Below, in pieces: positions 17,159 to 46,379 of a DNA stretch of 64,000 nt (position 1 is its first letter; the number at the start of each line of letters is the position of its first letter). The stretch is from positions 760-64,759 of the forward strand of contig CAZWNW010000015.1 in NCBI GenBank assembly GCA_964636255.1. Reading direction: 5' to 3'. Position numbers and translations under genes: made by a program. A model generated the notes under the pieces. That model saw only the letters and a program-made list of their open reading frames with translations, ran no database searches and was not told the DNA's origin. Source of the stretch: an uncultured Bacteriovoracaceae bacterium. GTDB taxonomy: Bacteria > Bdellovibrionota > UBA2428.

Positions 17159-17631
17159 TTTAGTTTAGTGAGATGCTTGGGCAAATCAAGATAGTCCCGT
17201 CGCGGGAGATAGATCTTGATGTTACGGTGAAAGGTAGTGGATAACTTTCCGCTCAATTCAAGGTCGACCTCGATGAGATCTGGACCGCGGACCAGGTAGC
17301 TCCCTTTCAAATCGAATCCACGCAGTGCCCAATCAAATTCACTATTGAAGCTAACGCTTCCACGGTTTTCTACCGGGCAACCTTCCTGCAAACACTCCAA
17401 CAAGTCACGATTTCTGGGCGCATCCAAAATAAGTTCGCGTATGAGATCCGGGCTGCGAAAGGCCATCATAAGATTTGCTTCCAGCGCGGCAGATTGAATT
17501 CTTCGATTCAATAAAGCGTTCTCTTTTTCGAAGGTGTTGAAAAGTGATGCCGCCCCTGAAAAAATGATGCCGAAAATTACAAAAGCGACCATCAATTCCA
17601 TAATGGAGAGGCCGTGAAGTGTCTTATTCAC
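17089..17631 (-). CDS. prepilin-type N-terminal cleavage/methylation domain protein (minor pilin/pseudopilin)
   Basis: MNKTLHG|LSIMELMVAFVIFGII has a class III signal with Glu at +5. Confidence 0.7.
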   Translation of the reverse strand: MNKTLHGLSIMELMVAFVIFGIIFSGAASLFNTFEKENALLNRRIQSAALEANLMMAFRSPDLIRELILDAPRNRDLLECLQEGCPVENRGSVSFNSEFDWALRGFDLKGSYLVRGPDLIEVDLELSGKLSTTFHRNIKIYLPRRDYLDLPKHLTKLKCGHREYLNGVRYKTWQAICKSI

Positions 17632-18353
17632 CAGTCGCTACCTCCTTGGACAGCAGGATCGCCGCACTGAGCTTTGTCTTGGGCAATATCAACGCTTAAG
17701 AGGTATGATCCGGGCGCAAGACATAGCCCTCCGCCGCGCACTTCGCATGCGGCACCTCCGGGCTGCCGTGCAAAGGGTACGTAGTAACGAATTTCACGGC
17801 GCAGATCGAGGTCAGGAACAGAAATCTCTATGCGAATTTCAGCGGCACTATCAAGTCCAGCACGCCACCACGCGATGCTTCGACCTCGGCAATTGTCGGG
17901 AAATCTTGGTGGAATTGTTACGTCATGTTCTTTGCCGAAGGGTTTCGGCAATTCGGGACAGGCCACCCAGTCTTTTGAAATATGATGGGCGCCCGCTACA
18001 TAGGTCCAATCCGATAGAGGCGTCTTTTTGTAGCGATAGAGCTTTACGTTTTTCCAGCCCAGTGGCTTCCAATCCTTTTGAAGTTTGCAGTGCTCCAAAC
18101 AGGGTTCTTGGAGACATTCTTTCAGAAGATCATCAGAGGCTAAATTGAGAGCATCACGAAATCGCTCTTCGATGATGAAATCCAGGCGCCGTTGCAATTC
18201 ATCTTTCTGTACAGATTCAGCGGCCGAGGCCTTGCTAGAATAACGACCCAGTAGGCCCGTCGCATAGGCATAGAGCACCATGAGAAAGGAGAGAATGGCC
18301 ATGGAGACGATGAGTTCTGCCATCGTAAAACCTAGTCGATTTTTTTTGCGCAC
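17628..18353 (-). CDS. prepilin-type N-terminal cleavage/methylation domain protein (minor pilin/pseudopilin)
   Basis: RKKNRLG|FTMAELIVSMAIL. Track ORF extends to 18428. A GTG preceded by GGAG would give the short basic leader MRKKNRLG, so the start is near 18353. Confidence 0.65.
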   Translation of the reverse strand: MRKKNRLGFTMAELIVSMAILSFLMVLYAYATGLLGRYSSKASAAESVQKDELQRRLDFIIEERFRDALNLASDDLLKECLQEPCLEHCKLQKDWKPLGWKNVKLYRYKKTPLSDWTYVAGAHHISKDWVACPELPKPFGKEHDVTIPPRFPDNCRGRSIAWWRAGLDSAAEIRIEISVPDLDLRREIRYYVPFARQPGGAACEVRGGGLCLAPGSYLLSVDIAQDKAQCGDPAVQGGSDW

Positions 18354-19000
18354 AATAACTCCAGGGGCGGGGCTGTTAATTGAATGGCTCGAAAACCTTC
18401 TCGACACTCGAGACTTTGCATCTGCCAATGATTACCGGCAAAGTTCAGTGGAAATTCTACGGTGAATTGATTTTCAGGATTCTTAGGGTTGATCGGACCT
18501 GTTCTTCGATGATCGCGTGTGGAGAGCGTCATGTGAAGTTTTGCCCAAATCATCAGACCTTGGCTTCGAATGCTTCCGAAAAAATGCGATTGGATCGGGC
18601 AATTTGCACCCGGTAAACAGCTTTCAAGTCCGCCGCGTCGGTGACTAGCTCCGGCTCCCAACCAAGGCTTTCCATCGGCATCTAGAACGCGAAGCGCTTG
18701 GTTGTTGGTGTAGTTGGGCAAAGGTTGAGAATTTTTCAGCGCCTCGTAGGCTTTGCTGAGAAATTCTTCGATATCAGGATTGGCTTCAATAAATGATTTT
18801 TCAATGAAGTGACTTGAGCGCACGGCGTTTTCAAGGCGAATGCGGAGAGCCTCCATGGCATGTTTTCGTTCAAGGGCGATCATCTCCAACTGCCGTCGTT
18901 GGAAGATGTTGTAGGAAATGACTGCAAAGAGACTCACTCCCACTACAAAAAGTGCCGCCATAATATAGGTCGAGCTCCCACGCCGACTTCGAAGATTCAT
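18332..19000 (-). CDS. N-terminally membrane-anchored protein, divergent pseudopilin-like
   Basis: RRGSSTYIMAALFVVGVSLFAVISY is a single N-terminal TM segment without the canonical G-F-T-x-x-E. First gene of the operon. Confidence 0.35.
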   Translation of the reverse strand: MNLRSRRGSSTYIMAALFVVGVSLFAVISYNIFQRRQLEMIALERKHAMEALRIRLENAVRSSHFIEKSFIEANPDIEEFLSKAYEALKNSQPLPNYTNNQALRVLDADGKPWLGAGASHRRGGLESCLPGANCPIQSHFFGSIRSQGLMIWAKLHMTLSTRDHRRTGPINPKNPENQFTVEFPLNFAGNHWQMQSLECREGFRAIQLTAPPLELLCAKKID

Positions 19001-21434: not shown

Positions 21435-22523
21435 ATGACTTCACCCATCGATTATACGAAAGATTCCCGATCGGCCTTGGAATCCAAAGAATATGCGCAG
21501 TGGATTGCCTTTGCTCCCTCGGTTTTTCAGGCCTCCCGCGTGCTCTGTGAAAGTGGCATTCTAAGTTCTATTGAAAAAGCAGGAAACGATGGGCTCACAA
21601 TGGATGAGATTGTGAGTGAAGTGAGGCTTTCGAATTATGCTGTGCGCGTTTTGTTGGAAGCTGGTCTGGGAATTGGCCTCGTTTTGGAAAATGAAGATCG
21701 TTATCGCCTGACCAAAACCGCTTGGTTTCTTCTGCATGATCCGCTGACGCAGGCGAATCTCAATTTTACCCATCATGTGAATTATCGAGGATTTTACAAT
21801 CTCGAAGAGGCGATCCGCAGCGGGAAGCCTGAAGGTTTAAAAACTCTTGGAAATTGGTCGACAATTTACGAGGGCTTGAGAGATCTGCCCGATGTTCCGC
21901 GACGGGCATGGTTTAATTTTGATCATCACTATTCCGAGGCTGCATTTCCGGATGCGCTTCCTCATGTGTTTGCTCATAATCCAAAGCGACTTCTGGACAT
22001 CGGGGGCAATACCGGGAAATGGGCGATCGCTTGTGCGCGCTACAATCCCGAAATCAAAATCACCATCATGGATTTGCCAGGGCAGTTGGCCATGGCCAAA
22101 AAGGCGGTGACCGAGGCCGGCTTCACAGATCGTGTTGATTTCGTAGAAGCCAATCTTTTAGATCCACAACAGAAAATTCCAGAAGGTTTTGATGCTGTAT
22201 GGATGAGCCAGTTTCTCGACTGCTTTTCCGAAGCTGAAATTGTTTCGATCATGAGTCGCTGTCGTTCGGCATTGAATCCTGGGGGCCTTGTTCATATTCT
22301 TGAGCCCTTTTGGGATCGGCAAAACTATAAGACCGCAGCATTCTGCTTGCAGCAAATTTCTCTCTATTTCACCGCGATGGCCAATGGAAATAGTCAGATG
22401 TATCGCTCAACCGTTTTTGAAAAGTGTGTCGAGGCTGCAGAATTTCGCATCAAAATCGCGAAAGACAATTTGGGAGTCGGTAGCACTCTTTTCAGCTGTG
22501 AAGTGATTGGTCCTCAAAAATAA
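21435..22523 (+). CDS. class I SAM-dependent O-methyltransferase (plant-type OMT family 2 architecture)
   Basis: N-terminal dimerisation/winged-helix region plus motif I LLDIGGNTGKWAIACA and downstream acidic motifs. 362 aa. Confidence 0.65.
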   Translation: MTSPIDYTKDSRSALESKEYAQWIAFAPSVFQASRVLCESGILSSIEKAGNDGLTMDEIVSEVRLSNYAVRVLLEAGLGIGLVLENEDRYRLTKTAWFLLHDPLTQANLNFTHHVNYRGFYNLEEAIRSGKPEGLKTLGNWSTIYEGLRDLPDVPRRAWFNFDHHYSEAAFPDALPHVFAHNPKRLLDIGGNTGKWAIACARYNPEIKITIMDLPGQLAMAKKAVTEAGFTDRVDFVEANLLDPQQKIPEGFDAVWMSQFLDCFSEAEIVSIMSRCRSALNPGGLVHILEPFWDRQNYKTAAFCLQQISLYFTAMANGNSQMYRSTVFEKCVEAAEFRIKIAKDNLGVGSTLFSCEVIGPQK

Positions 22524-23415: not shown

Positions 23416-24084
23416 TTAGCCTTCACTCCACGCAATGCTGATGAAATGACCCTGCCATTCCAGCAAGCGGAAATCAAAAAATTGATCAGAGTGTCTCGCT
23501 AAACCAGAATAAATCTTTGAATCATTGGGATCGTTGGAGGCTCGTATTTCTAAGACGCAAAAATCTCGATAGCGTCGTCCTTCATTCTGAGGATCAGCTT
23601 TAAATAGGGCTTCTTTTAATGTCCAGATCTGGATGGGCGGAAGCTCAAGCACTATGTCTTTTTCGTTTCGAATCCGATCCAAAGCAGCACTGCTCAATTT
23701 TCGATCAGCTTTTTCAATATCAATCGCAGCACTTGGGCGAAGAGAGTTAGTTTTCGTGGCTTGTAATCCCACAATGCGAATTGCAGCGCAGGCACTGCGG
23801 GTGTGAGAGAGTGCATAGGCATCAGCGACGCTTCCCTCGGCCAAAAGAGCCAAAAGAGCGGCACGCGAAGTGCACCATTGCGTCCTGCGGTGGGAGGGGG
23901 CGGCCTCATCTAATTTTTTGAGGAGAGCACTGAGCCATGGTTTGGAGTGAAATTTCGATCGAAGTGCATCTATTTCACCCTCAACACGCTCGTCTTCTTT
24001 CCCATTTTCTATATTCAGCTGCGCAATCCAGCTTATTTGCAGCGAGCCATGAGAGAAATTATTGATCAGTCCCGGCTTTTTCAT
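23416..24084 (-). CDS. 4'-phosphopantetheinyl transferase
   Basis: AAIDIEK matches the GxDxE motif and WTLKEALFKA matches the W..KEA..K motif. Confidence 0.65.
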   Translation of the reverse strand: MKKPGLINNFSHGSLQISWIAQLNIENGKEDERVEGEIDALRSKFHSKPWLSALLKKLDEAAPSHRRTQWCTSRAALLALLAEGSVADAYALSHTRSACAAIRIVGLQATKTNSLRPSAAIDIEKADRKLSSAALDRIRNEKDIVLELPPIQIWTLKEALFKADPQNEGRRYRDFCVLEIRASNDPNDSKIYSGLARHSDQFFDFRLLEWQGHFISIAWSEG

Positions 24085-24101: not shown

Positions 24102-25820
24102 TTAGGGGCTAGAGAAAAGCCGAATTTCTCCTGTGCATAAAACTTGGAGTTGCTTAGTAAGCACTTCACCCTGAACGAGGGCGACCGGTCCAAATTCGCG
24201 AGTCGTGCGGACGCGTACCAAGACTTCGGATTCAAGCCTGGGTACAGGGTGAAATTTGAAGTTTCGAAAGCCAACTAAATAAGCTTGCTTTAAATCCGCC
24301 GTAGGTCCGGGCGCGTGCCGCTTCCTAAGGGCAGTTACAAATCCCATCGCCTGGGCGATCCATTCCACACCTGCACTGTCTCGGATCCGGCCGTCGCCAT
24401 CAAGGTAGTTTCGATTTTCGGCGCGCTCGTCCAAAAAGACACGGGCCTGACCTTCGTCTGTGTGGACCCAATCGATTTGCTGAATCCACACAGCCCCGTC
24501 GCGGTGAGGCAGGAAGCTTTGCAGTTCCGTTACCGGCACGGGATCAACGACTAATTGTTTTCCGCGCAAAAGCTCTGCCGCGCCATTTCTCCAGATTTTC
24601 CCTTGAGGACTGAGAGGTAAATCCGAAACAAAATAAAAATGACGTGCGGAAAAACGGCGGCCGTATTTCTGAAGAAGAGCCGACTCAATTTCGATTCGGG
24701 GCAGGCTGCTCTGTCGATTTCCCCGGGGGGCCATCATGAGCCCTAGCTCAGCTCCCAGTCGATTATCAGGAACTTCGAAGGCCATTACTCGAAAAGGAAT
24801 CTTTGATTCCAAAAAAGCTTCGATTTCCGTTAAAGAAAACTTTTCCCCGCCCCGGTTCAATGTCCAATCCCAGCGACCTTTGAATATTAATGAATCCTTC
24901 TCAGTCTCTACAAGATGGTCGCGAATAATTAATTTTTCGGGGTGCTCGATCTTTCCGTCCTGAGCCAGCCCCCAACATAAATTGGGTCCTGAAAATTCGA
25001 TGCCCATCGAATCGACTAGTTTCGCATTCACTCCGGGAAGAAAAGTGCCAATCTCGCCAAACTCAATGGGTTCCACGCCTGGGGCCAAGTGGCTAAGCCC
25101 TGGCGAAGCCTCCGTGCATCCGTAACCGATACTTGGTTTTGCGATGTGAAGTTCGTCGCGAATCGATTTCCACAAAGCCGGGGTGACCGGAGCTCCGCCG
25201 ATAATACAGGTTGGCGACTGCGCAAATATCTTGGAGGAATTTTTCCGCACACATTCCACTAGATCAAAAAAATGCGCGGGTGATCCCAGCGTTAAAGTTT
25301 TCGAAGTGACGCGTTCCTTCCAGATTTCGAGATTGTCTTTTTTATAGGGACCCGTAATGAAATCAAGTTCCCAACCCTTTAGATAGGCCTGCAAATATCC
25401 GAGCGTGAATCCGAAAGTGTGAAAGGGTTGAGGGAGGCAGAAAATTCGGTCGAGATCAAAGCCTTTAAAGTGCGATGAAATAGCAACAAGGGAGCTTTCT
25501 ACATTTTCTTTTGAGTAGAGGACCAATCGAGATTCGCCAGAAACAGAGCCCGAAGTGAAGAGAGCAAACTGGCATTCTTTAAAACTGCGTGAACTTTTCC
25601 AGGATGCCCGATCATGGGATTCTTCGATTTTAACTCGAAGTTCCTTTGCATTCGGCTCTGTCCACTCGCCCAGAAAACTGAGCTCCTCTTTTGGTAGGGA
25701 TTCTACGAAATTTCCCGTGTGAAGAGTGGGCGGCAGAAGAATGAGTGTTTCCTGGCGAGTCCACGCGCGCTCTACAGTTTCGAAAAGTTCTTTTGAATGA
25801 TAGCCGCGCCAAAGAAGCAT
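24102..25820 (-). CDS. AMP-dependent synthetase/ligase (aryl-acid or acyl-ACP activating) with C-terminal ~130-aa extra domain, possibly hotdog-fold
   Basis: FTSGSVSGESRLV (A3-like), GYGCTEAS (A5), GRWDWTLNRGGEKF (A8). The C-terminal region after ~aa 440 is an extension not found in plain ligases. Confidence 0.55.
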   Translation of the reverse strand: MLLWRGYHSKELFETVERAWTRQETLILLPPTLHTGNFVESLPKEELSFLGEWTEPNAKELRVKIEESHDRASWKSSRSFKECQFALFTSGSVSGESRLVLYSKENVESSLVAISSHFKGFDLDRIFCLPQPFHTFGFTLGYLQAYLKGWELDFITGPYKKDNLEIWKERVTSKTLTLGSPAHFFDLVECVRKNSSKIFAQSPTCIIGGAPVTPALWKSIRDELHIAKPSIGYGCTEASPGLSHLAPGVEPIEFGEIGTFLPGVNAKLVDSMGIEFSGPNLCWGLAQDGKIEHPEKLIIRDHLVETEKDSLIFKGRWDWTLNRGGEKFSLTEIEAFLESKIPFRVMAFEVPDNRLGAELGLMMAPRGNRQSSLPRIEIESALLQKYGRRFSARHFYFVSDLPLSPQGKIWRNGAAELLRGKQLVVDPVPVTELQSFLPHRDGAVWIQQIDWVHTDEGQARVFLDERAENRNYLDGDGRIRDSAGVEWIAQAMGFVTALRKRHAPGPTADLKQAYLVGFRNFKFHPVPRLESEVLVRVRTTREFGPVALVQGEVLTKQLQVLCTGEIRLFSSP

Positions 25821-25830
25821 GCGCTCTAGT

Positions 25831-27429
25831 CTACCTGTTTTTGAAATAGTCGGGGCCGAAATTTAGTGCCGATGTCCATAGTGTGGATCGGAGTGCGCCA
25901 ATTGATGGGCCCAAACTCTGGTCGCGATCCACGAAAGGCACTGCTCGACGGATTTCTGCGAAGATTTTCTTTGAAACTTCGCCTTTGAGCGCGATTTTTC
26001 GCAAATCTAAAGCCTGAGCTAGGCAGACCAGTTGCAGGCTTTGCAGTGTAAAAAGTTTTTCCAGCATTTCAGAGGCTTGAGCCGCAGCCCCCATGCCCAT
26101 ACTCACCTTGTCTTGATTGTGAGACTCCGTGCTGCGGGACAAAACACTTGAAGGAAAACTTTTTTGTATGATTTCCGCAGTGATTGCGGATGCTGCTTGA
26201 TGCAATCCTTTTAGACCATGATGGAGATGCTTCTCGTCAGGGGGCAGTCGCTCCCAATCCACCAGATTGGGGGGTAGCCCGCGATTTGACTTGTCGTCGA
26301 CCAAGACCAAGATCTGGCGATCCAGAAGATCCGCAAGATTCGCTAGAGAAATCTTCAGGTAGTCCATTCCATGGGCGAGATAGCCGCCATAAAAATTTCC
26401 ACCATTCTGCACTTCGCCCTCGGGATCCAAGAGTGGATTGTCCGTGCAACTATTCACCTCGTCTTCGATCCATCGGGAAATAAGGTCGAGGGTGTCGCGT
26501 TGTGGTCCCAAAATTTGAGGAACGCAGCGAAGGGAATAGCGATCTTGGACATAACCCTCTGTGGTCATGTCGTTTTTCACCGGCACCCGGCTTCCGGAAA
26601 GCGGTCGATAATCTTCGGCATCCAGGTACTGGCTGATTCTTTCAGCAATGAGCGATTGAGATCCGTGCCTTTTGGCTTCGCGATTGACGAGGGGGCCAAA
26701 GGCTTCGCGACGACCACCAAGGGCCAAACACTGCCAGGAAGCTGTTAATGTTGCCATTTCCAATGAAAACTCTGAGAGCCGCCAATTATAAAGTGCATAG
26801 GCACTCATGACGGTCGTACCGTTCACGGTCGAAAGGGCTTCCTTGGGTTTGAAGACGTAAGATTTAAAATCTTTAATCTGCTGGCTTTCGTTGTAGCGCT
26901 CGCCGCGTTGGATTGCTGGTCCTCGACCAGAGAGCATGCGTGCCAGATAAGAGAGTGGCACAAGATCTCCGCTAGCACCTAGCGAACCTTCTTCAGGAAT
27001 TTCAGGGAGACAATCGTTTTCGATACAAAATTTCATTTGGTCCAAGAGCTCAAGGCTCACACCCGAAAAACCACGACTGAGGGCCCTGAGGTGAATCCAG
27101 AGCACTGCGCGTGAAACTTCGCGGGGCAAAATTTTTCCGCTGCCGCAATTTAGATATTCAGCCAAATTTTGTTGAAGCGATTGCGCCTTCTCATAGGGGA
27201 TCACGCGATGGCAACTGTCACCGAAGCCCGTGTTGACCCCATAGATCACCAGGCCGGACTTGAGACGATCCTCTAGTGCTTGACGGCTGCGGGCAATTTT
27301 TTCTCGAAGTGCGGTATCCACTTCGACTTCCGGAAAAGCATCTTCTCTAAGAAAAACGACGGATTGAAGTTCCTCGAGGCTCAAGGCTCTTTCACTCAGG
27401 CAAATTTTCGGCAAGCCTTGGGAAGACAT
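25831..27429 (-). CDS. aromatic amino acid ammonia-lyase (HAL/PAL/TAL family, MIO cofactor)
   Basis: GSLGASGDLVPLSYLA contains the Ala-Ser-Gly MIO-forming triad. Full-length 532 aa. Substrate class not resolvable by eye. Confidence 0.85.
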   Translation of the reverse strand: MSSQGLPKICLSERALSLEELQSVVFLREDAFPEVEVDTALREKIARSRQALEDRLKSGLVIYGVNTGFGDSCHRVIPYEKAQSLQQNLAEYLNCGSGKILPREVSRAVLWIHLRALSRGFSGVSLELLDQMKFCIENDCLPEIPEEGSLGASGDLVPLSYLARMLSGRGPAIQRGERYNESQQIKDFKSYVFKPKEALSTVNGTTVMSAYALYNWRLSEFSLEMATLTASWQCLALGGRREAFGPLVNREAKRHGSQSLIAERISQYLDAEDYRPLSGSRVPVKNDMTTEGYVQDRYSLRCVPQILGPQRDTLDLISRWIEDEVNSCTDNPLLDPEGEVQNGGNFYGGYLAHGMDYLKISLANLADLLDRQILVLVDDKSNRGLPPNLVDWERLPPDEKHLHHGLKGLHQAASAITAEIIQKSFPSSVLSRSTESHNQDKVSMGMGAAAQASEMLEKLFTLQSLQLVCLAQALDLRKIALKGEVSKKIFAEIRRAVPFVDRDQSLGPSIGALRSTLWTSALNFGPDYFKNR

Positions 27430-27463: not shown

Positions 27464-28126
27464 TCAAGCCTGGAGATAGAAAAGCCAAGGCCCAACGCGA
27501 CCCGGAGAGCGCTGATCTTCGATTGCTTGCCAGAGGGCTTTGTCATCCGCCAAAGGAGCCGGAAGGGAGCCAGCTTGATCGCCGATCTCCGCTCGAAGTT
27601 TTAATGATCCCAACCCCACGGTATCTTCTACTGGCCATGGGACCCCGGAATCGTCACCAATCAGGGCAAGTAACACCTCGTGAGTCGTCGAATTCTGCGG
27701 ACGGAGGCTTATCAACAGTTGCAGCTTTCCACTCATTCGAGCCTCAAACAGTGCCTCAGTAAATCCACTTAGTAGAGTTTCTTTGCCATTTTGGAGGCAC
27801 AAAAGGGGGCCATGGAATTTGGAGACCTGCAAAAAACTCGAGATCCGCACATTTGAAAGTGTGTGCACAAATTTCGAGGGACTTAAGCTGCCACCCCGGG
27901 TGAAGTCGTGATCCGTGGTGTTCGAAGCTCCTTCACAGGCTAGAACGAGGCCGCCAATGCGCAGCTCAGCCAATCCTCGATTTTTCTCCACAAGATTGCT
28001 CCAGGCTTCGGCCAAGGCATAGGCAGCGGCATCGAGAAGTTGCCATCGTTCGCAGGAATCTTTCCAGGACGGCTCGACCTGGGCGGGCCATTCACAGAAG
28101 GCTCGGAAAATTTCAAGGCGCATCAT
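27464..28126 (-). CDS. KS-like chain-length-factor-type protein (no active-site Cys seen)
   Basis: 220 aa. ATGA overlap with the upstream KS. Weak KS N-terminal-domain-like pattern. Assignment mainly by context. Confidence 0.35.
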   Translation of the reverse strand: MMRLEIFRAFCEWPAQVEPSWKDSCERWQLLDAAAYALAEAWSNLVEKNRGLAELRIGGLVLACEGASNTTDHDFTRGGSLSPSKFVHTLSNVRISSFLQVSKFHGPLLCLQNGKETLLSGFTEALFEARMSGKLQLLISLRPQNSTTHEVLLALIGDDSGVPWPVEDTVGLGSLKLRAEIGDQAGSLPAPLADDKALWQAIEDQRSPGRVGPWLFYLQA

Positions 28127-29241
28127 TTTTCGGTCTCCAAGACGCAGACCGCGTGAATGCCACCAAAGCCTAAAGAGTTGATCAAAATTCGAGGCTCCAA
28201 GAGTTTTTCGGATTCGAGAAGAAAGCGGTTTCGAAATTGAGGGGCTACCTGAGTAGTGTTGGTGATGGGAAAAATTTTCCCGTGGCGGAGTGCCTCGATC
28301 GCGGCGCAGATATCAACAGCGGAACTGGCGCCCAGGCTGTGTCCGATGCAGCCCTTGCTTGCAGTGATTCCGACTTGGTGATTGGGGCTAGTGCTCGGAA
28401 AAACTTCGGAGAGCGTGGCCGATTCAACTTCATCATTGGCGAGTGTTCCGGTGCCGTGGGCAATGATGGCCCCGAGCCGAAGATCCGAGGGAAGAGCGAG
28501 TGCCTCGAGCGCACGTTTGAAGCTACGGCCCCCTTCTTGCGGCCGGGTGATCGAGAAGCCTTCGACATCCAGTGCGCTGGCGCGTAGGCGGATCGGAAAA
28601 TCTCCGCGAGCTTCGCGCTCCATCAGGATCGCAACCGCTGCTTCGCCGATCCGCATCCCGGCCCGTTTTTCATCAAAGGGTCGAAGTGGGGTGGGGCTCA
28701 GGGCGCGCAAGGCATAAAATCCATTTAAGACAAAAGCACCCACAACGTCGGACGAGATTACCAAGACTTCGTCAACTCGATCACTCTCCATCCAGCGTTG
28801 GCCTAGATGGAGCGCCGAAATTCCGCTGGTGCAAGCGTTGCTGAGGCAAATTTGAACTTCGGGCTGCAGATTGTGCCGATTTAGGAAAGCATCCAAGATC
28901 GGACCTAAGGGATCCATCGGCGATACGGAATCCAACCAGGCGATGTCTTCGCTGAGGCCCTTTGTACTGGCGAAAATGATGCCAAGGCGTGTGGATCGCA
29001 AACTTAGTTTCTTGCTCAATCCTCGGTAGGCCTCGTCCAACAAATGGGCGATGCGATTTTCTGCAGACGTGCTTAGTAGATCAGGGACACGGTAGGCATG
29101 AACACTTGGTGGGACGAGTCGAGGAAAGTCTGTGATGGTGAAGCTTTGGCTTAAATCGCGCTTTTCGCAAAGAGCCGTCCACAGGGCATCGTTTCCGGAG
29201 CCCGCAGCTGTCACAGAATAAGAGGCGTTTAGATAAGCCAT
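28123..29241 (-). CDS. beta-ketoacyl-ACP synthase
   Basis: Active-site Cys in LSNACTSGISAL, then IIAHGTGT, KGCIGHSLGASSAVD and NSLGFGGIHAVCVLE. Confidence 0.8.
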   Translation of the reverse strand: MAYLNASYSVTAAGSGNDALWTALCEKRDLSQSFTITDFPRLVPPSVHAYRVPDLLSTSAENRIAHLLDEAYRGLSKKLSLRSTRLGIIFASTKGLSEDIAWLDSVSPMDPLGPILDAFLNRHNLQPEVQICLSNACTSGISALHLGQRWMESDRVDEVLVISSDVVGAFVLNGFYALRALSPTPLRPFDEKRAGMRIGEAAVAILMEREARGDFPIRLRASALDVEGFSITRPQEGGRSFKRALEALALPSDLRLGAIIAHGTGTLANDEVESATLSEVFPSTSPNHQVGITASKGCIGHSLGASSAVDICAAIEALRHGKIFPITNTTQVAPQFRNRFLLESEKLLEPRILINSLGFGGIHAVCVLETEK

Positions 29242-29275: not shown

Positions 29276-29644
29276 GTGATCAACCCTGAAGATGAGTTTT
29301 TCTTTGAAGGGCTCGAGCAGTCTGAATCAGAAATCCGCGCACAGCTCCCGCTGCGTCCCCAGATTCGTTACTTCACGGGCCATTTCCCAGGGGATCCCAT
29401 TTTGCCAGCCGTGGCCGTTGTTGATGCCGCTCATCTCTTGATCAAAAAGACGGGCCGAGTCGGGCGACTCGTGGAGATTGTGAATGGCAAGTTCACGCAG
29501 GCTTCGCGGGCGGGACAAAAATTGGAATTTCGCGCCTCGCTTCATCAACAAACAGAAACTGGGCTGGAGTGGCGGGTAGAGTGGCAAGAAGTCGGCTCAT
29601 CCGAAAAATCCGGTGAGCTCATTTTTCTTTTTGCCCGACTTTAG
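29276..29644 (+). CDS. FabA/FabZ-like hotdog dehydratase
   Basis: YFTGHFPGDPILPAVAVVDA matches the FabZ signature. 122 aa. Confidence 0.65.
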   Translation: MINPEDEFFFEGLEQSESEIRAQLPLRPQIRYFTGHFPGDPILPAVAVVDAAHLLIKKTGRVGRLVEIVNGKFTQASRAGQKLEFRASLHQQTETGLEWRVEWQEVGSSEKSGELIFLFARL

Positions 29645-29664: not shown

Positions 29665-29985
29665 CTAATTTTGAGCTGTAGTTTGGCCGTTCGTTGGATT
29701 GAGTTCAGCGGCAATCAGAGTTCGGATCATCGAATGCACATCGCCTAAAGTACGGATTTCTTTCAGACGGTCACCATCGACGCGAAGATCAAGTTTTTCT
29801 TCTAGGTGCACCAACATATCAACCGCGTCCAAGCTATCAAGCTCGAGGTCCTGGAAAACAGTGGCTTCTGGAAGGAGCTTTTCTTTGGGAATCTCGAATC
29901 CCGTATGAAATACGTCGTTGATTTCTTCGATCAAGAGCTGAGGATTGTTGAAAAGCGAGGCCAGTTTTTCTTTTTGCGTATCCAT
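29665..29985 (-). CDS. acyl carrier protein
   Basis: DLELDSLDAVDMLVHLEE contains the phosphopantetheine Ser motif DSL. Confidence 0.7.
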   Translation of the reverse strand: MDTQKEKLASLFNNPQLLIEEINDVFHTGFEIPKEKLLPEATVFQDLELDSLDAVDMLVHLEEKLDLRVDGDRLKEIRTLGDVHSMIRTLIAAELNPTNGQTTAQN

Positions 29986-29989
29986 AAAC

Positions 29990-31216
29990 TTAGTCGACTT
30001 TCGATAATATCAGGGATGTGCACATCCCTCCAAACGCAAAGTTATTGCTAAGGACGTTTTTGATGGGAAGTCGAAGGGGCTCTTTGATGAGATTCGCGCC
30101 GGCACAAGTAGAATCTATGTTTTCTAAATTTTTGGTAGGGATCAGAGTTCCGTGACCCATCATTTCCATCGACATGATCACTTCGATTCCTCCACAGGCC
30201 GCCAGGGAATGGCCGAAATGACCCTTGAGTGAACTTACGGGGGTTCTGGATCCGAAAGTATCTGCAATGGCTTGGGCCTCTTCAGCATCGCCCTGAATAG
30301 TGCCGGTTGCGTGCGCGTTTACGTAGTCAATATCAGCGGGCCCAAGTTCAGAGCGTTCGAGACTAAGGCGCATTGTTTTAACCATGGCCTCTCGATTGGA
30401 TTGGCTGGCATGAGAGCCTTCACAGACATAGGCCCCGCCCCGAATTTCTGCGCGTGCTTTTTGGCCTCGTTTTTGAAGACTTCGTTCACTTTCTAGAATG
30501 ATGACCGAGGCTCCTTCAGAAACTGCGAGTCCATCGCGATCGCGGTCAAAGGGACGCGGCGATTGATCGGCTCGGTCGTTAAAATTACGGGTAGCCGCAT
30601 GCACGGTGTCAAAAACTGCAGCGCTTGTGTAGTGCAATTCGTCAGCACCGCCGGCGATCACTCGGTCGTAGACTCCTGCGCGAATCAATTCCCAGCCCAG
30701 AATTATGGCTTGGGTCGATGTCGAGCAGGCCGAGGCGACTCCCAAAGCAGGACCCGTGAATCCAAGGGCTGCCGCCACATTTGTTGAGATCGAGTGATTC
30801 ATGACTTTGAAAAAGGAAGTCCCGAGTTGCCCCTCGGGTCCTCCGACTTCCAAAAGTTTTTTAAAATAAGTTTCCAAGGTATCGGGGCTGCCGGAAGTTG
30901 AGCCCATGCAAATCAACGTGCGCGGAAATTCCTGATTGATCGCCTCGGGGCTGATCCCCGCGTCCTCTAGGGCGTCCAGTGCGGCCCGGGCGGCCATCTC
31001 AGACATGCGGGACATGGTTCGACGAGAGCTTCGTGGAACACTTTTAATATCAAAGGGATGTGCCGGGGCGCCAAGGCGAGAGTGAAGGCCTTTGTATTGT
31101 TCCCACTCGGGGTAGGCGCGGATCGCACTCTCGTGTCGAAGGAGCGCTTCGAAGGCAGTCGTGGCACGATTTCCTAATGAGGAAACTAAACCCGTCCCCG
31201 ATATAAAAACTTTCAC
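29990..31216 (-). CDS. beta-ketoacyl-ACP synthase (FabF/FabB-like)
   Basis: GVASACSTSTQAIILG has the catalytic Cys. HATGTIQGD, KGHFGHSLAACG and NNFAFGGMCTSLIL complete the KS motifs. Confidence 0.85.
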   Translation of the reverse strand: MKVFISGTGLVSSLGNRATTAFEALLRHESAIRAYPEWEQYKGLHSRLGAPAHPFDIKSVPRSSRRTMSRMSEMAARAALDALEDAGISPEAINQEFPRTLICMGSTSGSPDTLETYFKKLLEVGGPEGQLGTSFFKVMNHSISTNVAAALGFTGPALGVASACSTSTQAIILGWELIRAGVYDRVIAGGADELHYTSAAVFDTVHAATRNFNDRADQSPRPFDRDRDGLAVSEGASVIILESERSLQKRGQKARAEIRGGAYVCEGSHASQSNREAMVKTMRLSLERSELGPADIDYVNAHATGTIQGDAEEAQAIADTFGSRTPVSSLKGHFGHSLAACGGIEVIMSMEMMGHGTLIPTKNLENIDSTCAGANLIKEPLRLPIKNVLSNNFAFGGMCTSLILSKVD

Positions 31217-31219
31217 CGA

Positions 31220-32728
31220 CTAATAGCTAAGCTCGCTCAGTCGACGAATCAAGGGTTTGATCCCCAAAAGATGGCCAGCCGTTCGCAGGCCAGAGACGCT
31301 GGCCCCCATGACGCCTGGGAAAAGTGTGTTCTGCCCAGTCAAAAGGAGATTCGGAATTTTGGTGCGGGGTCCAAGCGAGCGCGCCCCTGTGTTGGAAATG
31401 GAATGATAAAGTCCATAGGGCGAGCCCTCGGGCGAGGGATTGTAAAACTGATTGGTCAGTGGGCTTGAGGTGGTCGAGTCGATGATTTCAGCCTGGAAAC
31501 CAGGTTCAAAGCGCTCGACCAGTTCGAGGCTTTTCTCTGCTAGTAGCTTTTTTGCTTCCTGGTAGTCCGCTGGACGTTTGCCGATTTGGCTTTCTGCCCA
31601 ACGTTCAAACCAACTGTATTCACATCCGACCAAAAGATTAAATGCAGCTGTTTCGCCTAAGGTTTTGGCATCGCGCTGTGCAGCGGATCGAAAAGCTACC
31701 AGTGGAAGATCAAAGGGAGCGGCCAGTTCTACGGGGGATGTTCCGCCTGACTCGCGGAAGAAATAATCGTTCTTTAGATAGGCCTGGGCCGGTCGATTGT
31801 GGGGCGTTTTCAAGTAAAGACCAAATATCCCGGAGCTTTCTTTCAGTCGCTCAACTCGGCCCTTGAATGCGGGAGTGAAGATTGAGGTGTCGTCGAGCAT
31901 TTGAAAAGTACTCTTTGGATGGATCCCAGAGATAAGAATTTTGCATTCAATCACCGATCCATCTTCCAGTTGGACACTTCGGACTTCGCCGCCTTTTGTG
32001 TGGATGGCCTGGACGCGACTTCTAAGGTGAATTTCTCCGCCCAAATTTTTGAGTCGCTCAACAAAGCGTCCCGCCACCACATCGCCGCCATTTCGAAAAC
32101 CAAAGGCTCCCAATAGCAGAGAATCCAAGATCACGGCGTGCATCCCAAAGGAAGTTTCCGAGGGATCTGCCCCATGCAAAGCGCAGTAGGCGAAAAGGAT
32201 TTTTTTCAAGTTAAGATCGCGAACGTGCCCATCGACCACCTGAGCGAGGGGAGTTTCCATGCTTTTTAAAAGTGCAGACGAATCGACTTCTTCATTAAAG
32301 CGATAAGTTTGAAAGTGAAAGGTAGCCCGACGGGATTCCTCAAGAAATTTGTGAATTCCTTGGCGCTCTGCGGGAAATTGCTCGCAAAGGCCTTCGGCAA
32401 AATTCTCGTATCCGGTGGGAATTTTGAAATCAAAGTTCGGGAAGTGCAAGTGATCAAAGCCCTTCGGGTCGAGTTCAATGTAATCCTCTTCGAAAAATAC
32501 CCCGAGTGATTGCAGCAAGGCGTGAAAGGGTTGGCCTGTCTTAAGCGCGCCCACATAATGGGCACCGGTATCAAAGCGATGGCCAAAACGATTAAAGCAA
32601 TGAAGATAGCCTCCGGGTTTGAAAGTTTTTTCTAAAACACAAACCGATCGACCGGCTTCCGCAAGCAGGATTGCAGCCGTGAGGCTTGAAACCCCAGAAC
32701 CGATCAAGACCACATCATAGGATTTCAT
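31220..32728 (-). CDS. FAD-dependent oxidoreductase, phytoene-desaturase (CrtI)-like
   Basis: MKSYDVVLIGSGVSSLTAAILLAEAGRSVCVLEK is an N-terminal Rossmann GxGxxG dinucleotide fold. 502 aa. Confidence 0.65.
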   Translation of the reverse strand: MKSYDVVLIGSGVSSLTAAILLAEAGRSVCVLEKTFKPGGYLHCFNRFGHRFDTGAHYVGALKTGQPFHALLQSLGVFFEEDYIELDPKGFDHLHFPNFDFKIPTGYENFAEGLCEQFPAERQGIHKFLEESRRATFHFQTYRFNEEVDSSALLKSMETPLAQVVDGHVRDLNLKKILFAYCALHGADPSETSFGMHAVILDSLLLGAFGFRNGGDVVAGRFVERLKNLGGEIHLRSRVQAIHTKGGEVRSVQLEDGSVIECKILISGIHPKSTFQMLDDTSIFTPAFKGRVERLKESSGIFGLYLKTPHNRPAQAYLKNDYFFRESGGTSPVELAAPFDLPLVAFRSAAQRDAKTLGETAAFNLLVGCEYSWFERWAESQIGKRPADYQEAKKLLAEKSLELVERFEPGFQAEIIDSTTSSPLTNQFYNPSPEGSPYGLYHSISNTGARSLGPRTKIPNLLLTGQNTLFPGVMGASVSGLRTAGHLLGIKPLIRRLSELSY

Positions 32729-33498
32729 GTGGGAAAGAGGCCACCATTAATGCTGAGCGTGTGCCCAGTGACATATGAGGCGGCGGGTGAACAGAGGAAA
32801 TCGATGCAGGCTGCGACTTCGTCGGCTGTTCCAAAGCGCCCCATAGGAATACGTTTTTTAAAGTCTTCGAGTTGAGGAATATTTTGGATCATTTCAGTTT
32901 CGATCAAACCAGGAGCTACCGCATTCACGCGCACATTGCGGGGCCCTAGTTCCATGGCCAGAGTTTTGGTCATCGCGATCAGGCCCGCCTTGCTCGCGGC
33001 ATAATTAATCTGCCCAGGATTGCCGGTTTGCCCAGCAAGAGACGCGACATTGACGATGGCACCCTTGCGGGCGCGCATCATTTTCCGCGCAGCCCACTTC
33101 AGCAAGACAAAGGGCCCGTGAAGATTCGTGCGCACGACGCGATCAAAAGATTCCAGAGACATCAATCCCGCTAGTGTGTCTTCGTGAATGCCGGCGTTGT
33201 TGACAAGAACTTCAACGGAGCGACTGCCATGTTCCTTCCAAAAGCTCTCGATACGTTCTTCAATCTCTTCAGGTCGGCCCAGATCAGCTTGCCAAAGAAG
33301 GCCTTGACCGCCCCCATCACGAATTTCCTCGAGGACCTTTTCGGCCTTTCCCTGGTTCGAATTGTAATGGATCCAGATTTCATAACCTCGAGCAGCCAAT
33401 CTCCGGGCAGTAGCCGCGCCAATTCCCGAGGAGGCGCCCGTTACCAAGGCTATTGCGGAAGACGGGGTCGACATTAAGATGTAAGGTACTTGGCTCAT
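32725..33498 (-). CDS. 3-oxoacyl-ACP reductase (SDR, FabG-like)
   Basis: ALVTGASSGIGAATARRL, NNAG and YAASKAG are SDR signatures. Start possibly at the internal Met near 33474. Confidence 0.85.
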   Translation of the reverse strand: MSQVPYILMSTPSSAIALVTGASSGIGAATARRLAARGYEIWIHYNSNQGKAEKVLEEIRDGGGQGLLWQADLGRPEEIEERIESFWKEHGSRSVEVLVNNAGIHEDTLAGLMSLESFDRVVRTNLHGPFVLLKWAARKMMRARKGAIVNVASLAGQTGNPGQINYAASKAGLIAMTKTLAMELGPRNVRVNAVAPGLIETEMIQNIPQLEDFKKRIPMGRFGTADEVAACIDFLCSPAASYVTGHTLSINGGLFPT

Positions 33499-34298
33499 TT
33501 ATGAACGTCAAACCCGGAGCTTCTCTACGAAGTGAAACCTCGATTTTCTGGACGATTTATTTCTACATCAGCTTTCTATTTCTGGGCGCGTTCTATGCGA
33601 TGCCTATTGTTTTGCCCTTGGCGCTCTTGGCCCGTATTTTTCCGCGCTTTCGTCCTTTAGCCCATTGGGCTTTGAGTTGGGGAACGGGCTTGTTTTTGAA
33701 ACTTCAACCGTGGCTCAGGGTCGAATTTCGACGTCCGGCCGGAGCTCGAAGTCTTGGGCCGGGCCCCACGCTTTTTGTCGCGAATCATCGATCGATATTA
33801 GATGGCTTTTTAATGTTAACGCTGATCCCTGGAGTATCGATGCTTGCAAAACGAAGTCTCTTTAATTTGCCGATGCTGGGCATCATGATGCGGGCAACGG
33901 GCCAAATCCCTGCGGTAAAAGGGGATTTAAATAGTTTGCTGCGAGCCCGCGAAATCTGCGCGAAAAAATTAAATGGGGGCGGAAAGGTTCTTGTCTTTCC
34001 GGAGCTCACACGTTGCCCTCCGGGTCACCCGGCTTCCAAAGATTTTTCCTCTTTGCCGTTTACACTTGTCGGTGGAACCTCGTGTACTTTAGTTCCCATT
34101 GTGATTCATGGTTCAGATCGAGCGTGGTTTCCGGCGACCTCCAAAGTGGCCCGTCGTGCCCATGTGACGATTCAAGAGCTTGATCCGATAGTGATTACTG
34201 ACGCGGCTTCCAAGGATCTGGCACGGACTGCAAAAGAGAGTATCGATCGCGAATGGTTTTTGCGGGAAGCTTTCTCGGGTCGGGATCTGAATCAATGA
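33453..34298 (+). CDS. lysophospholipid (1-acyl-glycerol-3-phosphate) acyltransferase family protein
   Basis: VANHRSILD is the HX4D motif and FPELTR matches the FPEGTR motif. N-terminal TM segment. Start likely at the internal Met (near 33501 or 33600), because the listed ORF overlaps the divergent KR gene. Confidence 0.7.
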   Translation: MRKTGSTLRCKVLGSFMNVKPGASLRSETSIFWTIYFYISFLFLGAFYAMPIVLPLALLARIFPRFRPLAHWALSWGTGLFLKLQPWLRVEFRRPAGARSLGPGPTLFVANHRSILDGFLMLTLIPGVSMLAKRSLFNLPMLGIMMRATGQIPAVKGDLNSLLRAREICAKKLNGGGKVLVFPELTRCPPGHPASKDFSSLPFTLVGGTSCTLVPIVIHGSDRAWFPATSKVARRAHVTIQELDPIVITDAASKDLARTAKESIDREWFLREAFSGRDLNQ

Positions 34299-36337
34299 AA
34301 ATCAGACTTTGTATTTTAGTCCCCACCTACAACAATGCGGAAAGTATTCTTCAGGTTTGCTCGGAGTTGATCGAAAATACTGAGCTGCCCGTTCTCGTTG
34401 TGGACGACGGATCTTCGATTCCGGTCGAGACTCTGTTGGGCGAGGAAAAATTTCTCATAGCCCGGGCGAGTGGTCGACTTACGATTCTTTGTAACGACGA
34501 GAATCGTGGCAAAGGATTTAGTCTCGAGCGCGGATTTCGATGGTGCATCACTCAGGGCTACACGCACGCACTGGCTTTCGACGGCGATGGCCAACATCTG
34601 GTAAGTGAAATCCCTAAACTTTTGAACGAAGCACGAGAAAATCCCTGGGCTTTGATCGTCGGTAGTCGCAAATTCCAGGGACCGAGCGTGCCAGAGGTCA
34701 GTCGATTCGGCCGCAAATTTTCGAATTTTTGGGTGCGCTTTCAGACCGAAATGGGTGTGAGCGATTCGCAAAGTGGCCTGCGTGTTTATCCTCTCTTTTT
34801 CATTCAGCGCATGAATTTTTTCAGCAAGCGCTTTGACTTCGAGATCGAAGTTCTGGTGCGCTTGATGTGGCGGGGCGTGGCCATTCGCGATGTCGAGGTG
34901 GCTTGTTATTATCCACCCGCAGAAGAGCGCATCAGCCACTTTGATAAACTCTGGGACAATGTCCGTATTTCGCTTTTGAATACGGTTTTAGTCGTGGTGA
35001 GCTTGTTGCGCACCCGTCTTTCGCCCATTCCCGTGGGCGTTGCGGTAGCGCTTGGGGTATGGGTGGGAACGACGCCTTTTTTTGGTTTTCATGCTTTGAT
35101 CTGTGCCGGACTGTCGTTCGTCTTTCGTTTGAATTTCCTGATGCTTCTGTTGGGTTCGCAGATTTCCATTCCTCCAATCGCACCTTTTCTTTCGGTGGCT
35201 TCTATTGCGCTGGGTGAAAATCTTTTTGGACTTGCGGGCGAGTCTAAGATTCTTGGGATGGCGGGGGCCTGGTTGGCTGGTTCACTTGTCTTAGGGGCAA
35301 TTCTTGGGCTCTTGATTGGAGGACTCGTCAGCATCTTGCTGTATCGTGTGAAAAGTCAGCGCGCGAATTGGCAAGGCAAAACCCGCGGCGGGCGTTTCGG
35401 AAATGCCTTCATGAAATTTGTGGCGCAAAAAGTCGGACTTCGCGTCGCCTATTTCTTTCTTTATTTTATTGTTCCGTATTTTTATTTTTTTTCGCCATCC
35501 GGCACTCGCGCTTCGAATCACTACTGGAAGCAGACACGACCGGAAGTCGGTTTTTGGAAACGACAGTGGCTTGTGCTTTGTCATTACATGACTTTCGCCA
35601 AGACACTCCTCGATCGAATTCTTCAGAGCGGACATGAAAATTCTCTTTACTATTATCCCTCCCAAGGTGGGGAATTGCTACACGAAGCTTTGGATCGGGG
35701 CGAGGGAATTGTTTTGATCGGTTCACATGTGGGGAATTGGCATCTGGCTCTAACGGAACTTGCTCGCAGACGACGGGATCAGTCGTTGGTTTCACTTGAG
35801 TATCAGTCCGAGGGTTTGACCTTTGATAAGGCAATCGGTGGTGATGCATCACCCTTAACGGAAGTTTTGTCTTCAAAAATGGCTCTACCACTTCTTGAAG
35901 CGCGTTCACTTTTGGAGCGGGGCCAGCCGCTGGGCATGATGATTGATCGGCCCGGAATCGGCACTGCAGAACTGATACCCTTTTTTGGGGGCTTGGCCGC
36001 TTTTGATGCAACACCTATACGTCTGGCGATGGCCTGTCGAAAGAGAATACTTTTCACATTTAGTTTTAAGGATGGTGACAGAACTTACCGCTCCTTCGCC
36101 TTCGAGGAAATTTTCCCGATTCCCGGAGAAGGAGTAGATCGCGAAACCCATCTTCACCAGGCTTTGTGCGTTTACGCGACACGCCTTGAAAGCATGCTTC
36201 GCCGTTATCCGGATCAGTGGTTTAATTTTTTCCCTTTTTGGTCTCGGCCCCCCTTTTCTCCGCTGGATGCAGCGATGGCAGATTCAGAGGTGCCCGTGGA
36301 GAGGCGAAAAGTCTCCGAAGCCAGTGCCAAATTGTGA
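34295..36337 (+). CDS. fusion protein: GT2 glycosyltransferase + multi-TM region + LpxL/HtrB-like lipid acyltransferase
   Basis: N-terminal CILVPTYNNAES...VVDDGS...DGDGQH is GT-A/GT2. The middle hydrophobic block has several TM segments. C-terminal GSHVGNWHL resembles the HxxNWE motif of lauroyl/myristoyl acyltransferases. ATGA overlap with the upstream gene. Track ORF starts at 34253. Confidence 0.6.
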   Translation: MKIRLCILVPTYNNAESILQVCSELIENTELPVLVVDDGSSIPVETLLGEEKFLIARASGRLTILCNDENRGKGFSLERGFRWCITQGYTHALAFDGDGQHLVSEIPKLLNEARENPWALIVGSRKFQGPSVPEVSRFGRKFSNFWVRFQTEMGVSDSQSGLRVYPLFFIQRMNFFSKRFDFEIEVLVRLMWRGVAIRDVEVACYYPPAEERISHFDKLWDNVRISLLNTVLVVVSLLRTRLSPIPVGVAVALGVWVGTTPFFGFHALICAGLSFVFRLNFLMLLLGSQISIPPIAPFLSVASIALGENLFGLAGESKILGMAGAWLAGSLVLGAILGLLIGGLVSILLYRVKSQRANWQGKTRGGRFGNAFMKFVAQKVGLRVAYFFLYFIVPYFYFFSPSGTRASNHYWKQTRPEVGFWKRQWLVLCHYMTFAKTLLDRILQSGHENSLYYYPSQGGELLHEALDRGEGIVLIGSHVGNWHLALTELARRRRDQSLVSLEYQSEGLTFDKAIGGDASPLTEVLSSKMALPLLEARSLLERGQPLGMMIDRPGIGTAELIPFFGGLAAFDATPIRLAMACRKRILFTFSFKDGDRTYRSFAFEEIFPIPGEGVDRETHLHQALCVYATRLESMLRRYPDQWFNFFPFWSRPPFSPLDAAMADSEVPVERRKVSEASAKL

Positions 36338-40538: not shown

Positions 40539-40626
40539 ATTATTAGTAAATAAATACAGTTTTATCTTTCGAATCAAATTCCTTCTTTTCTGGCAGAGGC
40601 TAAGAGGAATTTGCTAAGCTTCAGAT

Positions 40627-46354: not shown

Positions 46355-46379
46355 GCCGATAGTAAATTATTTTTTTACA

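Follow-up and report, generated by a model that had tools for sequence, protein, structure and literature searches.

In Acinetobacter baumannii, the dehydratase protomer ApeI of the aryl-polyene (APE) pathway is reported to be fused to the C-terminus of the starter ligase ApeH and to pair with ApeP, the two forming a heterodimeric dehydratase with a single active site (PMC8041823). The structure of such an ApeI:ApeP dehydratase heterocomplex from Xenorhabdus doucetiae is available, with ApeI as chain A and ApeP as chain B (PDB 6qsr). For X. doucetiae ApeH, direct loading of the aryl acid onto an acyl carrier protein (ACP) without a coenzyme A (CoA) intermediate has been described, and the aryl polyenes of Escherichia coli start from 4-hydroxybenzoate with no lyase involved (PMC8253772). 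In this work we analyzed a stretch of 64,000 nucleotides (nt), hereafter the window, from an uncultured Bacteriovoracaceae bacterium (contig CAZWNW010000015.1). Positions 24102–27429 of its minus strand carry genes for a 4-methylideneimidazole-5-one (MIO) lyase and for a ligase of the ANL family with a C-terminal extension. We consider it quite probable that an aryl-polyene/flexirubin-type type II polyketide synthase (PKS) has its starter module in these two genes and that the ligase is fused to an ApeP-like dehydratase half with a predicted ApeI-like partner.

The module comprises two open reading frames (ORFs) lying where an earlier note on this DNA had placed them, with 10 nt between the lyase stop and the ligase start. 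The lyase ORF (25831–27429) encodes an MIO-dependent aromatic amino acid ammonia-lyase of 532 amino acids (aa). The second ORF (24102–25820) encodes a fusion protein of 572 aa, in which Pfam matches and an AlphaFold2 model delimit an ANL domain with both subdomains and a short N-terminus (residues 1–424; 24549–25820; Pfam, NCBIfam and Foldseek) and an ApeP-like hotdog domain (residues 433–572; 24105–24524; profile, AlphaFold2, Foldseek and hhalign). A gene similar to those of 4'-phosphopantetheinyl transferases (PPTases) follows directly downstream of the fusion on the same strand (23416–24084; Pfam ACPS, 25.1 bits, at the cut-off). Scans for promoters and terminators around the module gave results at or below shuffle expectation.

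The earlier note had claimed that the ligase exceeds plain ligases by some 130 aa, possibly of hotdog fold, and that this part might supply a missing ApeK-like thioesterase. The extension is real and comprises about 140 residues after position ~424. In the full-length AlphaFold model of the fusion (pLDDT 90.4), both ANL subdomains are present and end at ~424; a linker of lower confidence (~421–432) is followed by a separate domain consisting of a beta-sheet and a long helix (448–571). An assignment of the extension to the normal C-terminal ANL subdomain (motifs A9–A10) was rejected, since motifs A8 to A10 and the ends of the profile matches lie at 315–422 and the model shows a third domain. 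The hotdog fold guessed earlier was confirmed by a model of the extension (pLDDT 92.1) and by Foldseek, which placed X. doucetiae ApeP (6qsr_B) at rank 1 (TM score 0.83, E 1.4e-9); the next ranks are taken by some 40 FabZ chains with TM scores of 0.77–0.80. Hotdog thioesterases (YdiI and Arthrobacter 4HBT) enter this list no earlier than rank 42 (ranks 42–47), with TM scores of ~0.64.

When the C-terminal 142–147 aa were searched in isolation, no Pfam or NCBIfam threshold was reached and the only match was FabA (E 0.07–0.08); similarly, a PDB search with the single sequence returned only 6qsr_B (E 0.56). Significance came with a family profile, an alignment of 22 extension domains from homologous proteins. 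Against the PDB, this profile matched 6qsr_B best (E 7.7e-7) and then FabZ enzymes. Aligned by hhalign to references from the ape cluster of E. coli CFT073, it reached a probability of 96.9% with ApeP (E 2e-10, 117 columns), 0.6% with ApeI and 0.08% with the thioesterase ApeK. The Pfam family ApeP-like (PF22817) weakly matched eight of the 22 members (best E 0.001); it gave 17.9 bits on a stand-alone relative and 141.5 bits on E. coli ApeP, used as a control. The control proteins were assigned as expected from their names, ApeP to ApeP-like, ApeI to ApeI-like and ApeK to 4HBT_2 and 4HBT. In the precomputed Pfam assignments of the protein collection, fused homologs are listed with AMP-binding and ApeP-like domains. 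Hence, by profile and by structure, the extension is closer to ApeP than to ApeI or to thioesterases.

The 22 domains share the pattern LPHRxPMxWID...Y....R.S..IEW.AQ..G, and Pro438, His439, Trp445, Glu486, Ala489 and Gln490 (numbering of the window protein) are invariant among them. The active site of FabZ combines the His in the HFPxxPxxPG motif of one protomer with the Glu on the central helix of the other protomer. The window domain contains LPHR at 437–440 and Glu486 within VEWIAQ, and it has no HFPxxPxxPG catalytic-His motif: Asn471/Tyr472 stand at the HF position, where ApeP of E. coli and X. doucetiae have Phe. Taken together, the sequence profile, the predicted structure and the orthology to stand-alone genes identify the extension as an ApeP-like dehydratase protomer; for the window domain itself, it is the profile and the structure that place it in the ApeP-like group. 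ApeI as the fused protomer, the arrangement known from Acinetobacter, was rejected on the basis of the hhalign results and the absence of the His motif.

To see how the fusion is distributed, we compared the ligase with its homologs, 227 of which had E≤1e-5 among the candidates scored. Among the best 120 of these 227, 42 are fused proteins of about 540–590 aa, and the rest have lengths of about 365–480 aa, mostly near 415 aa. Two of four related loci studied more closely (L001, L002, L003 and L005) illustrate the unfused state: in L002 and L003 the ligase has 416 or 445 aa, and a separate ApeP-like gene of 152 aa overlaps its stop. These two loci share with the window the order ketoreductase, amine-oxidase-like gene, ketosynthase, ACP, ApeI-like gene on the opposite strand, ketosynthase with a partner, lyase and ligase. 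Fused relatives, including one in the complete genome of Bdellovibrio sp. HCB185ZH, have the same gene order.

A scan with one genome per species yielded 60 loci, nearly all labelled Bdellovibrionota (Bdellovibrionales, Pseudobdellovibrionaceae, Oligoflexia, Bacteriovoracaceae, Halobacteriovorax). The fusion forms a single reading frame in 14 of the 60 genomes; in 32 a separate ApeP-like ORF lies downstream of the ligase, within 300 nt in all but one case (31/32). For the other 14, no ApeP-like ORF was found downstream in the available DNA, and several of these loci end at contig edges. In a library-wide profile search, which revealed 2151 related proteins, stand-alone (~150 aa) and fused (~560 aa) forms interleave by score. 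A frameshift or assembly artefact was rejected, since one-frame fusions recur among the homologs (42 of the top 120) and among the species genomes (14 of 60). We conclude that the fusion is real and that it has recurred as a variant of an ancestral gene pair, in which the ligase gene is followed by the ApeP-like gene. In a rough neighbor-joining tree, based on identity and without an outgroup, fused and unfused states are interspersed and suggest at least 11 fusion or fission changes, so that repeated independent fusion or fission is likely.

It is worth adding that a flavin-dependent (Trp_halogenase-type) halogenase gene is located between lyase and ligase in L002 (8810–10000), L003 (8767–9987) and L005 (6725–7390). 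In the window, the 10-nt gap at 25821–25830 holds no halogenase, and its product is therefore presumably not halogenated.

The presumed counterpart of the fused protomer is encoded in the same cluster. A stand-alone ApeI-like hotdog protein of 122 aa (29276–29644, plus strand), recognized by Pfam, PDB and BLASTP searches, contains His36 (GHFPGDPILPAV) and Asp50 and carries GHFPGDP. It scored 29.6 bits with Pfam FabA and 24.8 bits with ApeI-like, under the cut-off of 28.5, and it matched 6qsr_A with E 2.8e-4 and E. coli ApeI with 36% identity (E 8e-6). An ApeI-like gene with the HFPGDP motif was present in all five loci examined (the window and the four related loci). In the window it is the only opposite-strand gene within a long same-strand PKS run; its start lies 34 nt from the start of a ketosynthase gene and its end 20 nt from the stop of an ACP gene. 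This inverted placement is kept in four of four relatives (L001, 13823–14185; L002, 4998–5360; L003, 5056–5415; L005, 2834–3253), and in L002 the 3' end of the gene overlaps the ACP gene.

According to the mechanism that we propose, the MIO lyase would act on an aromatic amino acid, with tyrosine the best candidate, and deaminate it to a cinnamate-type acid, which the ANL domain would adenylate and transfer to a carrier thiol. By analogy with ApeH and with FlxY of the flexirubin pathway, the acceptor would probably be one of the two ACPs of the cluster, activated by the adjacent PPTase. The fused ApeP-like domain, with Glu486 and without the His motif, would pair with the free ApeI-like protein, which contributes His36. 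The resulting heterodimer would have one active site and act as the 3-hydroxyacyl-ACP dehydratase by which every double bond of the polyene is introduced. We infer the pairing and the dehydratase chemistry from the ApeI:ApeP precedent. The fusion would tether the loading enzyme to the dehydratase and would supply no thioesterase.

Membership of the ligase in the ANL superfamily is evident from its match to Pfam AMP-binding (PF00501; E 3e-17, 62.8 bits vs. the cut-off of 29.9). All adenylation motifs claimed earlier were found, namely an A3-like FTSGS at 88–92, A5 (GYGCTE) at 232–237 and A8 (GRWD/RGGEK) at 315–327, and in addition the A7 residue Asp301 and the A10 residue Lys408 within SPQGK. 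The P-loop is diverged (FTSGSVSGESR). In a family alignment with 56 relatives, Glu237, Asp301, Arg316 and Lys327 are invariant and Lys408 is conserved in at least 90% of sequences. The NCBIfam profiles of MenE, Aas and FadD type matched up to their C-terminal ends at residues 412–422, and a Foldseek search with the full model revealed 4-chlorobenzoyl-CoA ligase, MenE, aryl-acid adenylating enzymes, acyl-ACP synthetase and 4-coumarate-CoA ligase. Orthology to ApeH was not supported: BLASTP aligned only the A3 region (E 0.75), and a hidden Markov model of the ligase family gave 12.5 bits on E. coli ApeH, indicating a remote relation only. Apart from this ligase, no ANL enzyme was detected in the cluster. 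The MIO lyase therefore adjoins the sole adenylating enzyme of an aryl-polyene-type cluster, in agreement with the starter module proposed in the earlier note.

The lyase belongs to the MIO lyase/mutase family (Pfam PF00221, Lyase_aromatic; E 4e-129, 431.7 bits). The canonical Ala-Ser-Gly triad, already pointed out in the earlier note, is present as Ala152-Ser153-Gly154 in GASGDL (codons at 26968–26976, minus strand). Together with Tyr63, of the catalytic Tyr loop, and the carboxylate-binding pair Tyr298/Arg301, it is invariant in all 120 closest homologs. The best sequence matches in the PDB are the aminomutase AdmH, the tyrosine ammonia-lyase (TAL) RsTAL and cyanobacterial phenylalanine ammonia-lyases (PALs), with E of about 1e-56 to 1e-60, and the enzyme is about equidistant from these proteins and from histidine ammonia-lyases (HALs). 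It stays below every NCBIfam equivalog cut-off, with 348.8 bits for HutH (cut-off 539), 339.6 for BagA/FevW (1000) and 289.9 for FlxA (700), so that neither the FlxA nor the BagA equivalog score was reached; the phenylalanine aminomutase model gave 326 bits, close to the scores of the lyase models.

Whether the selectivity switch carries His or Phe had been raised as a check, and in fact neither residue is present. In the alignment the query reads NLAEYL, wild-type RsTAL (2o6y) NLVHHL and its His89Phe variant (2o78) NLVHFL, which places Tyr92 at His89 and Tyr92-Leu93 (codons at 27151–27156, minus strand) opposite His89-Leu90; the RsTAL-type His is thus absent. Tyr92-Leu93 is invariant in the 120 closest homologs, which share 47–54% identity with the lyase and represent a large uncharacterised MIO clade with Tyr-Leu at the His/Phe switch, auto-annotated variously as histidine or phenylalanine ammonia-lyase. 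Our literature search found no specific reports on Tyr at the TAL/PAL switch. At motif 2, Gln is characteristic of the TAL/PAL state and Glu of the HAL state (PMC3992019); the lyase has Gln439 in NQD (438–440), as in the NQD of RsTAL, and this Gln is also invariant in the 120 homologs. Motif 1 gives no specificity prediction outside its clade (FlxA paper). With Tyr-Leu at the switch, the substrate is not readable from the sequence. Identity with HutH was rejected in view of the score of 348.8 bits vs. 539, Gln439 in place of Glu and the PKS genes as neighbors; no hut genes are located nearby, which removes the objection that the earlier note had foreseen. Tyrosine is favored as the most likely substrate, and the enzyme is probably a tyrosine ammonia-lyase, because of the ApeB-like ring methyltransferase of the cluster, the halogenases in the relatives and the flexirubin precedent FlxA/FlxY.

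We next consider the surrounding cluster. Compared pairwise with the E. coli proteins, the window showed matches to ApeB, C/O, R, Q, I, P, E, F, D, J, L and M, and together with the Pfam assignments these matches characterize an aryl-polyene/flexirubin-type type II PKS. The components covered are a ketosynthase/chain-length factor pair, an initiating ketosynthase, a ketoreductase, two hotdog dehydratase protomers, two ACPs, a methyltransferase, an acyltransferase, a glycosyl/acyltransferase, a LolA-like protein and an MMPL/RND transporter. No homologs of ApeK, ApeG, ApeN and ApeA were detectable in the window.

On the minus strand, upstream of the lyase and ligase genes and in one string with them, lie a ketosynthase gene (28123–29241; Pfam ketoacyl-synt, 32% identity to ApeO) and a gene for a partner of 220 aa (27464–28126), which has no Pfam family and overlaps the ketosynthase gene by 4 nt. 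In L003 (5463–7172) ketosynthase and partner form a single ORF of 569 aa. The pair resembles the cispentacin protein AmcF in NCBIfam (131.6 bits), with a faint match to AmcG (E 0.1). The same strand encodes an ApeF-like ACP with a DSL motif (29665–29985; Pfam PP-binding, 36% identity to E. coli ApeF), an ApeR-like ketosynthase (29990–31216; 39% identity to E. coli ApeR over 407 aa) and an ApeQ-like ketoreductase (32725–33498; 41% identity to E. coli ApeQ, Pfam adh_short).

The plus strand carries the gene for the ApeB-like S-adenosylmethionine-dependent methyltransferase, a candidate for methylation of the aryl head group (21435–22523; 45% identity over 350 aa to E. coli ApeB, E 3e-115; Pfam Methyltransf_2). 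A further gene on this strand (34253–36337) encodes a protein with a family 2 glycosyltransferase (GT2), a DUF2062 and a lipid-A-type acyltransferase part, homologous to ApeJ (37% over the GT part); the bin 34001–36000 inside it has a strongly negative AT skew (−0.20). An ApeE-like ACP with a DLDS motif (46347–46670, plus strand) shares 33% identity with E. coli ApeE (E 4e-11, small database) and has no Pfam match at E≤0.01; by analogy, it is the likely acceptor of the starter. It is followed by an ApeO-like ketosynthase (46692–47864; 37% identity to ApeO, Pfam Ketoacyl-synt_2) with a chain-length-factor-like protein (47861–48589), directly after them by a polysaccharide deacetylase (48593–49243), and then by a Coq4-like ORF (49245–49643), all on the plus strand. 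A polysaccharide deacetylase also occurs in L001 and in the description of the flexirubin cluster.

Several ORFs inside the cluster belong to no Pfam family, namely 37800–40538 (plus strand, 912 aa) and 36899–37657, 40574–40897 and 41355–42002 (minus strand). They adjoin an ORF with an acyl-CoA:6-aminopenicillanic acid acyltransferase (AAT) domain (41909–43537) and one with a CBM60 domain (36364–36882). Two ORFs with a prokaryotic N-terminal methylation (type IV pilin-like) motif are located upstream of the cluster (17089–18428, minus strand) and probably mark its left boundary.

The suggestion that the hotdog domain hydrolyzes thioesters in place of ApeK, as a thioesterase or in proofreading, deserves attention, as no stand-alone thioesterase could be found: tblastn with E. 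coli ApeK gave no match in the window at E≤1, none of ~50 window ORFs scanned had a 4HBT/thioesterase Pfam family, and no thioesterase was revealed within 10 kb at the four related loci. These results are consistent with the earlier note. YdiI and Arthrobacter 4HBT do occur in the Foldseek list, at ranks 42–47, and some hotdog thioesterases are known to conserve an acidic residue in their central helix. We nevertheless regard a hydrolase as very unlikely. The domain belongs to the dehydratase branch of hotdog proteins, with TM scores of 0.83 to ApeP and 0.77–0.80 to FabZ vs. ~0.64 to the thioesterases; the hhalign probability with ApeK is 0.08%; and no 4HBT match was found with Pfam. Its orthologs are ApeP-like genes that, where they stand alone (L002, L003), always co-occur with the ApeI-like partner and its conserved catalytic His motif. 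Moreover, E. coli does not need ApeK in order to form APE acids (PMC8253772), and its absence here therefore requires no replacement. Another view, which we find improbable, is that the fused domain is catalytically silent and serves in dimerisation, as a scaffold or in ACP docking, the ApeI-like protein acting alone as a FabA-like homodimeric dehydratase. In its favor, that protein has both His36 and the central-helix Asp50, while the fused domain lacks the catalytic-His motif and falls under the family thresholds, as relaxed constraint would allow. Yet Glu486, Ala489, Gln490 and the LPH motif are invariant in 22 diverse members, which argues for a constrained contribution to an active site, and in their published complex ApeI and ApeP form an obligate heterodimer that has one active site (PMC8041823; PDB 6qsr).

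For the lyase, we think it unlikely that the MIO enzyme is a PAL providing a cinnamate starter, or an aminomutase providing a beta-amino acid starter for the ligase. The latter has a parallel in HitA/HitB of hitachimycin-type pathways, where a beta-amino acid starter is made and then loaded by a ligase. AdmH is the top PDB match (E 1.2e-60), marginally ahead of RsTAL, the phenylalanine aminomutase model scores similarly to the lyase models, the switch residue is Tyr and not the His of TALs, and specificity does not follow from motif 1, as the case of FlxA shows. On the other hand, every model score is far below its cut-off and so none discriminates, all cluster components match aryl-polyene/flexirubin machinery with phenolic head groups, and the ApeB-like ring methyltransferase here and the halogenases of the relatives imply that the phenol ring is activated. 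Our preferred reading, a starter module whose ligase is fused to an ApeP-like dehydratase half, also has points against it. The window domain has no match to ApeP-like (PF22817) at E≤10, the gathering score being 27 bits; the alignment may be shifted by one residue around the position of the catalytic His of FabZ; and four of the 22 family members, the window protein not among them, have His at this position. The ApeI-like protein with its own central-helix Asp might act as a FabA-like homodimer, the remote relation of the ligase to ApeH leaves ACP or CoA as acceptor, and the Tyr of the lyase takes the place of the His of TALs and the Phe of PALs, with an aminomutase as the top PDB match of the enzyme.

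On the reading of a ligase–ApeP starter module, the annotation of the extension changes from a presumed thioesterase to a dehydratase half. The comparison also shows that predatory Bdellovibrionota have flexirubin-like aryl-polyene clusters of a separate lineage, with the ligase next to the ApeP protomer and, in roughly one species out of four, fused to it. Together with the published ApeH-ApeI fusion, this is evidence of the Rosetta-stone type for physical coupling of starter loading and dehydration in these type II synthases, which could help to plan their reconstitution and structural analysis. With its invariant Tyr at the His/Phe switch, the lyase clade offers a fresh case for the rules of TAL/PAL specificity. 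A bolder proposal, to which we give little credence at present, is that two unrelated lineages have fused the starter ligase to opposite dehydratase halves (ApeH-ApeI in Acinetobacter and, repeatedly, a distant ANL ligase to ApeP in Bdellovibrionota), and that the lyase clade is a new specificity class, e.g., for ring-substituted tyrosines. If the fusions to opposite halves hold true, the loading enzyme and the dehydratase would be one physical assembly in aryl-polyene synthases generally.

We found no paper describing a ligase–ApeP arrangement and no specific literature on aryl polyenes of Bdellovibrio, and a protein search with E. coli ApeI, aimed at ApeH-ApeI architectures, revealed only Enterobacterales proteins of 117 aa. 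Comparison with the known systems shows the following. As in FabZ, the fused domain has the hotdog fold, the N-terminal LPHR motif and the central-helix Glu in xExxAQ; FabZ is a homo-oligomer with the HFPxxPxxPG His in every protomer, whereas the window domain has Asn471/Tyr472. As in the X. doucetiae complex, there are two kinds of protomers, the fused domain matching 6qsr_B and the free partner 6qsr_A. The cluster shares with E. coli CFT073 homologs of ApeB, C/O, R, Q, I, P, E, F, D, J, L and M. It differs in having an MIO lyase, while the E. coli starter is 4-hydroxybenzoate and needs no lyase (PMC8253772); in E. coli, ApeH, ApeI and ApeP are encoded by separate genes, with apeI adjoining apeH. 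In Chitinophaga pinensis, FlxA (a TAL) and FlxY (a 4-coumarate-CoA ligase) show the same combination as the window of an MIO lyase annotated as HAL and an atypical ANL ligase that feed a polyene synthase resembling type II fatty acid synthases, and FlxA and the window lyase both have Gln at motif 2. However, FlxA has a HAL-like motif 1 in place of Tyr-Leu, and the window lyase scores 290 bits vs. the FlxA cut-off of 700; flxA and flxY are separated by the length of their cluster, one at each end, and not by 10 nt, and no hotdog fusion has been reported for FlxY, in contrast to the ligase described here. With Acinetobacter, the window shares the principle of a starter-acid ligase that carries one dehydratase protomer at its C-terminus, the other protomer being encoded by a separate gene of the cluster. 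Different from Acinetobacter are the fused protomer, the ligase lineage and the MIO lyase with Tyr at the switch: the window ligase is no more than a remote relative of ApeH (12.5 bits), and it is fused to the ApeP-like protomer, with Glu and without the His motif, and leaves the ApeI-like protein free, which is the reverse of the arrangement in Acinetobacter.

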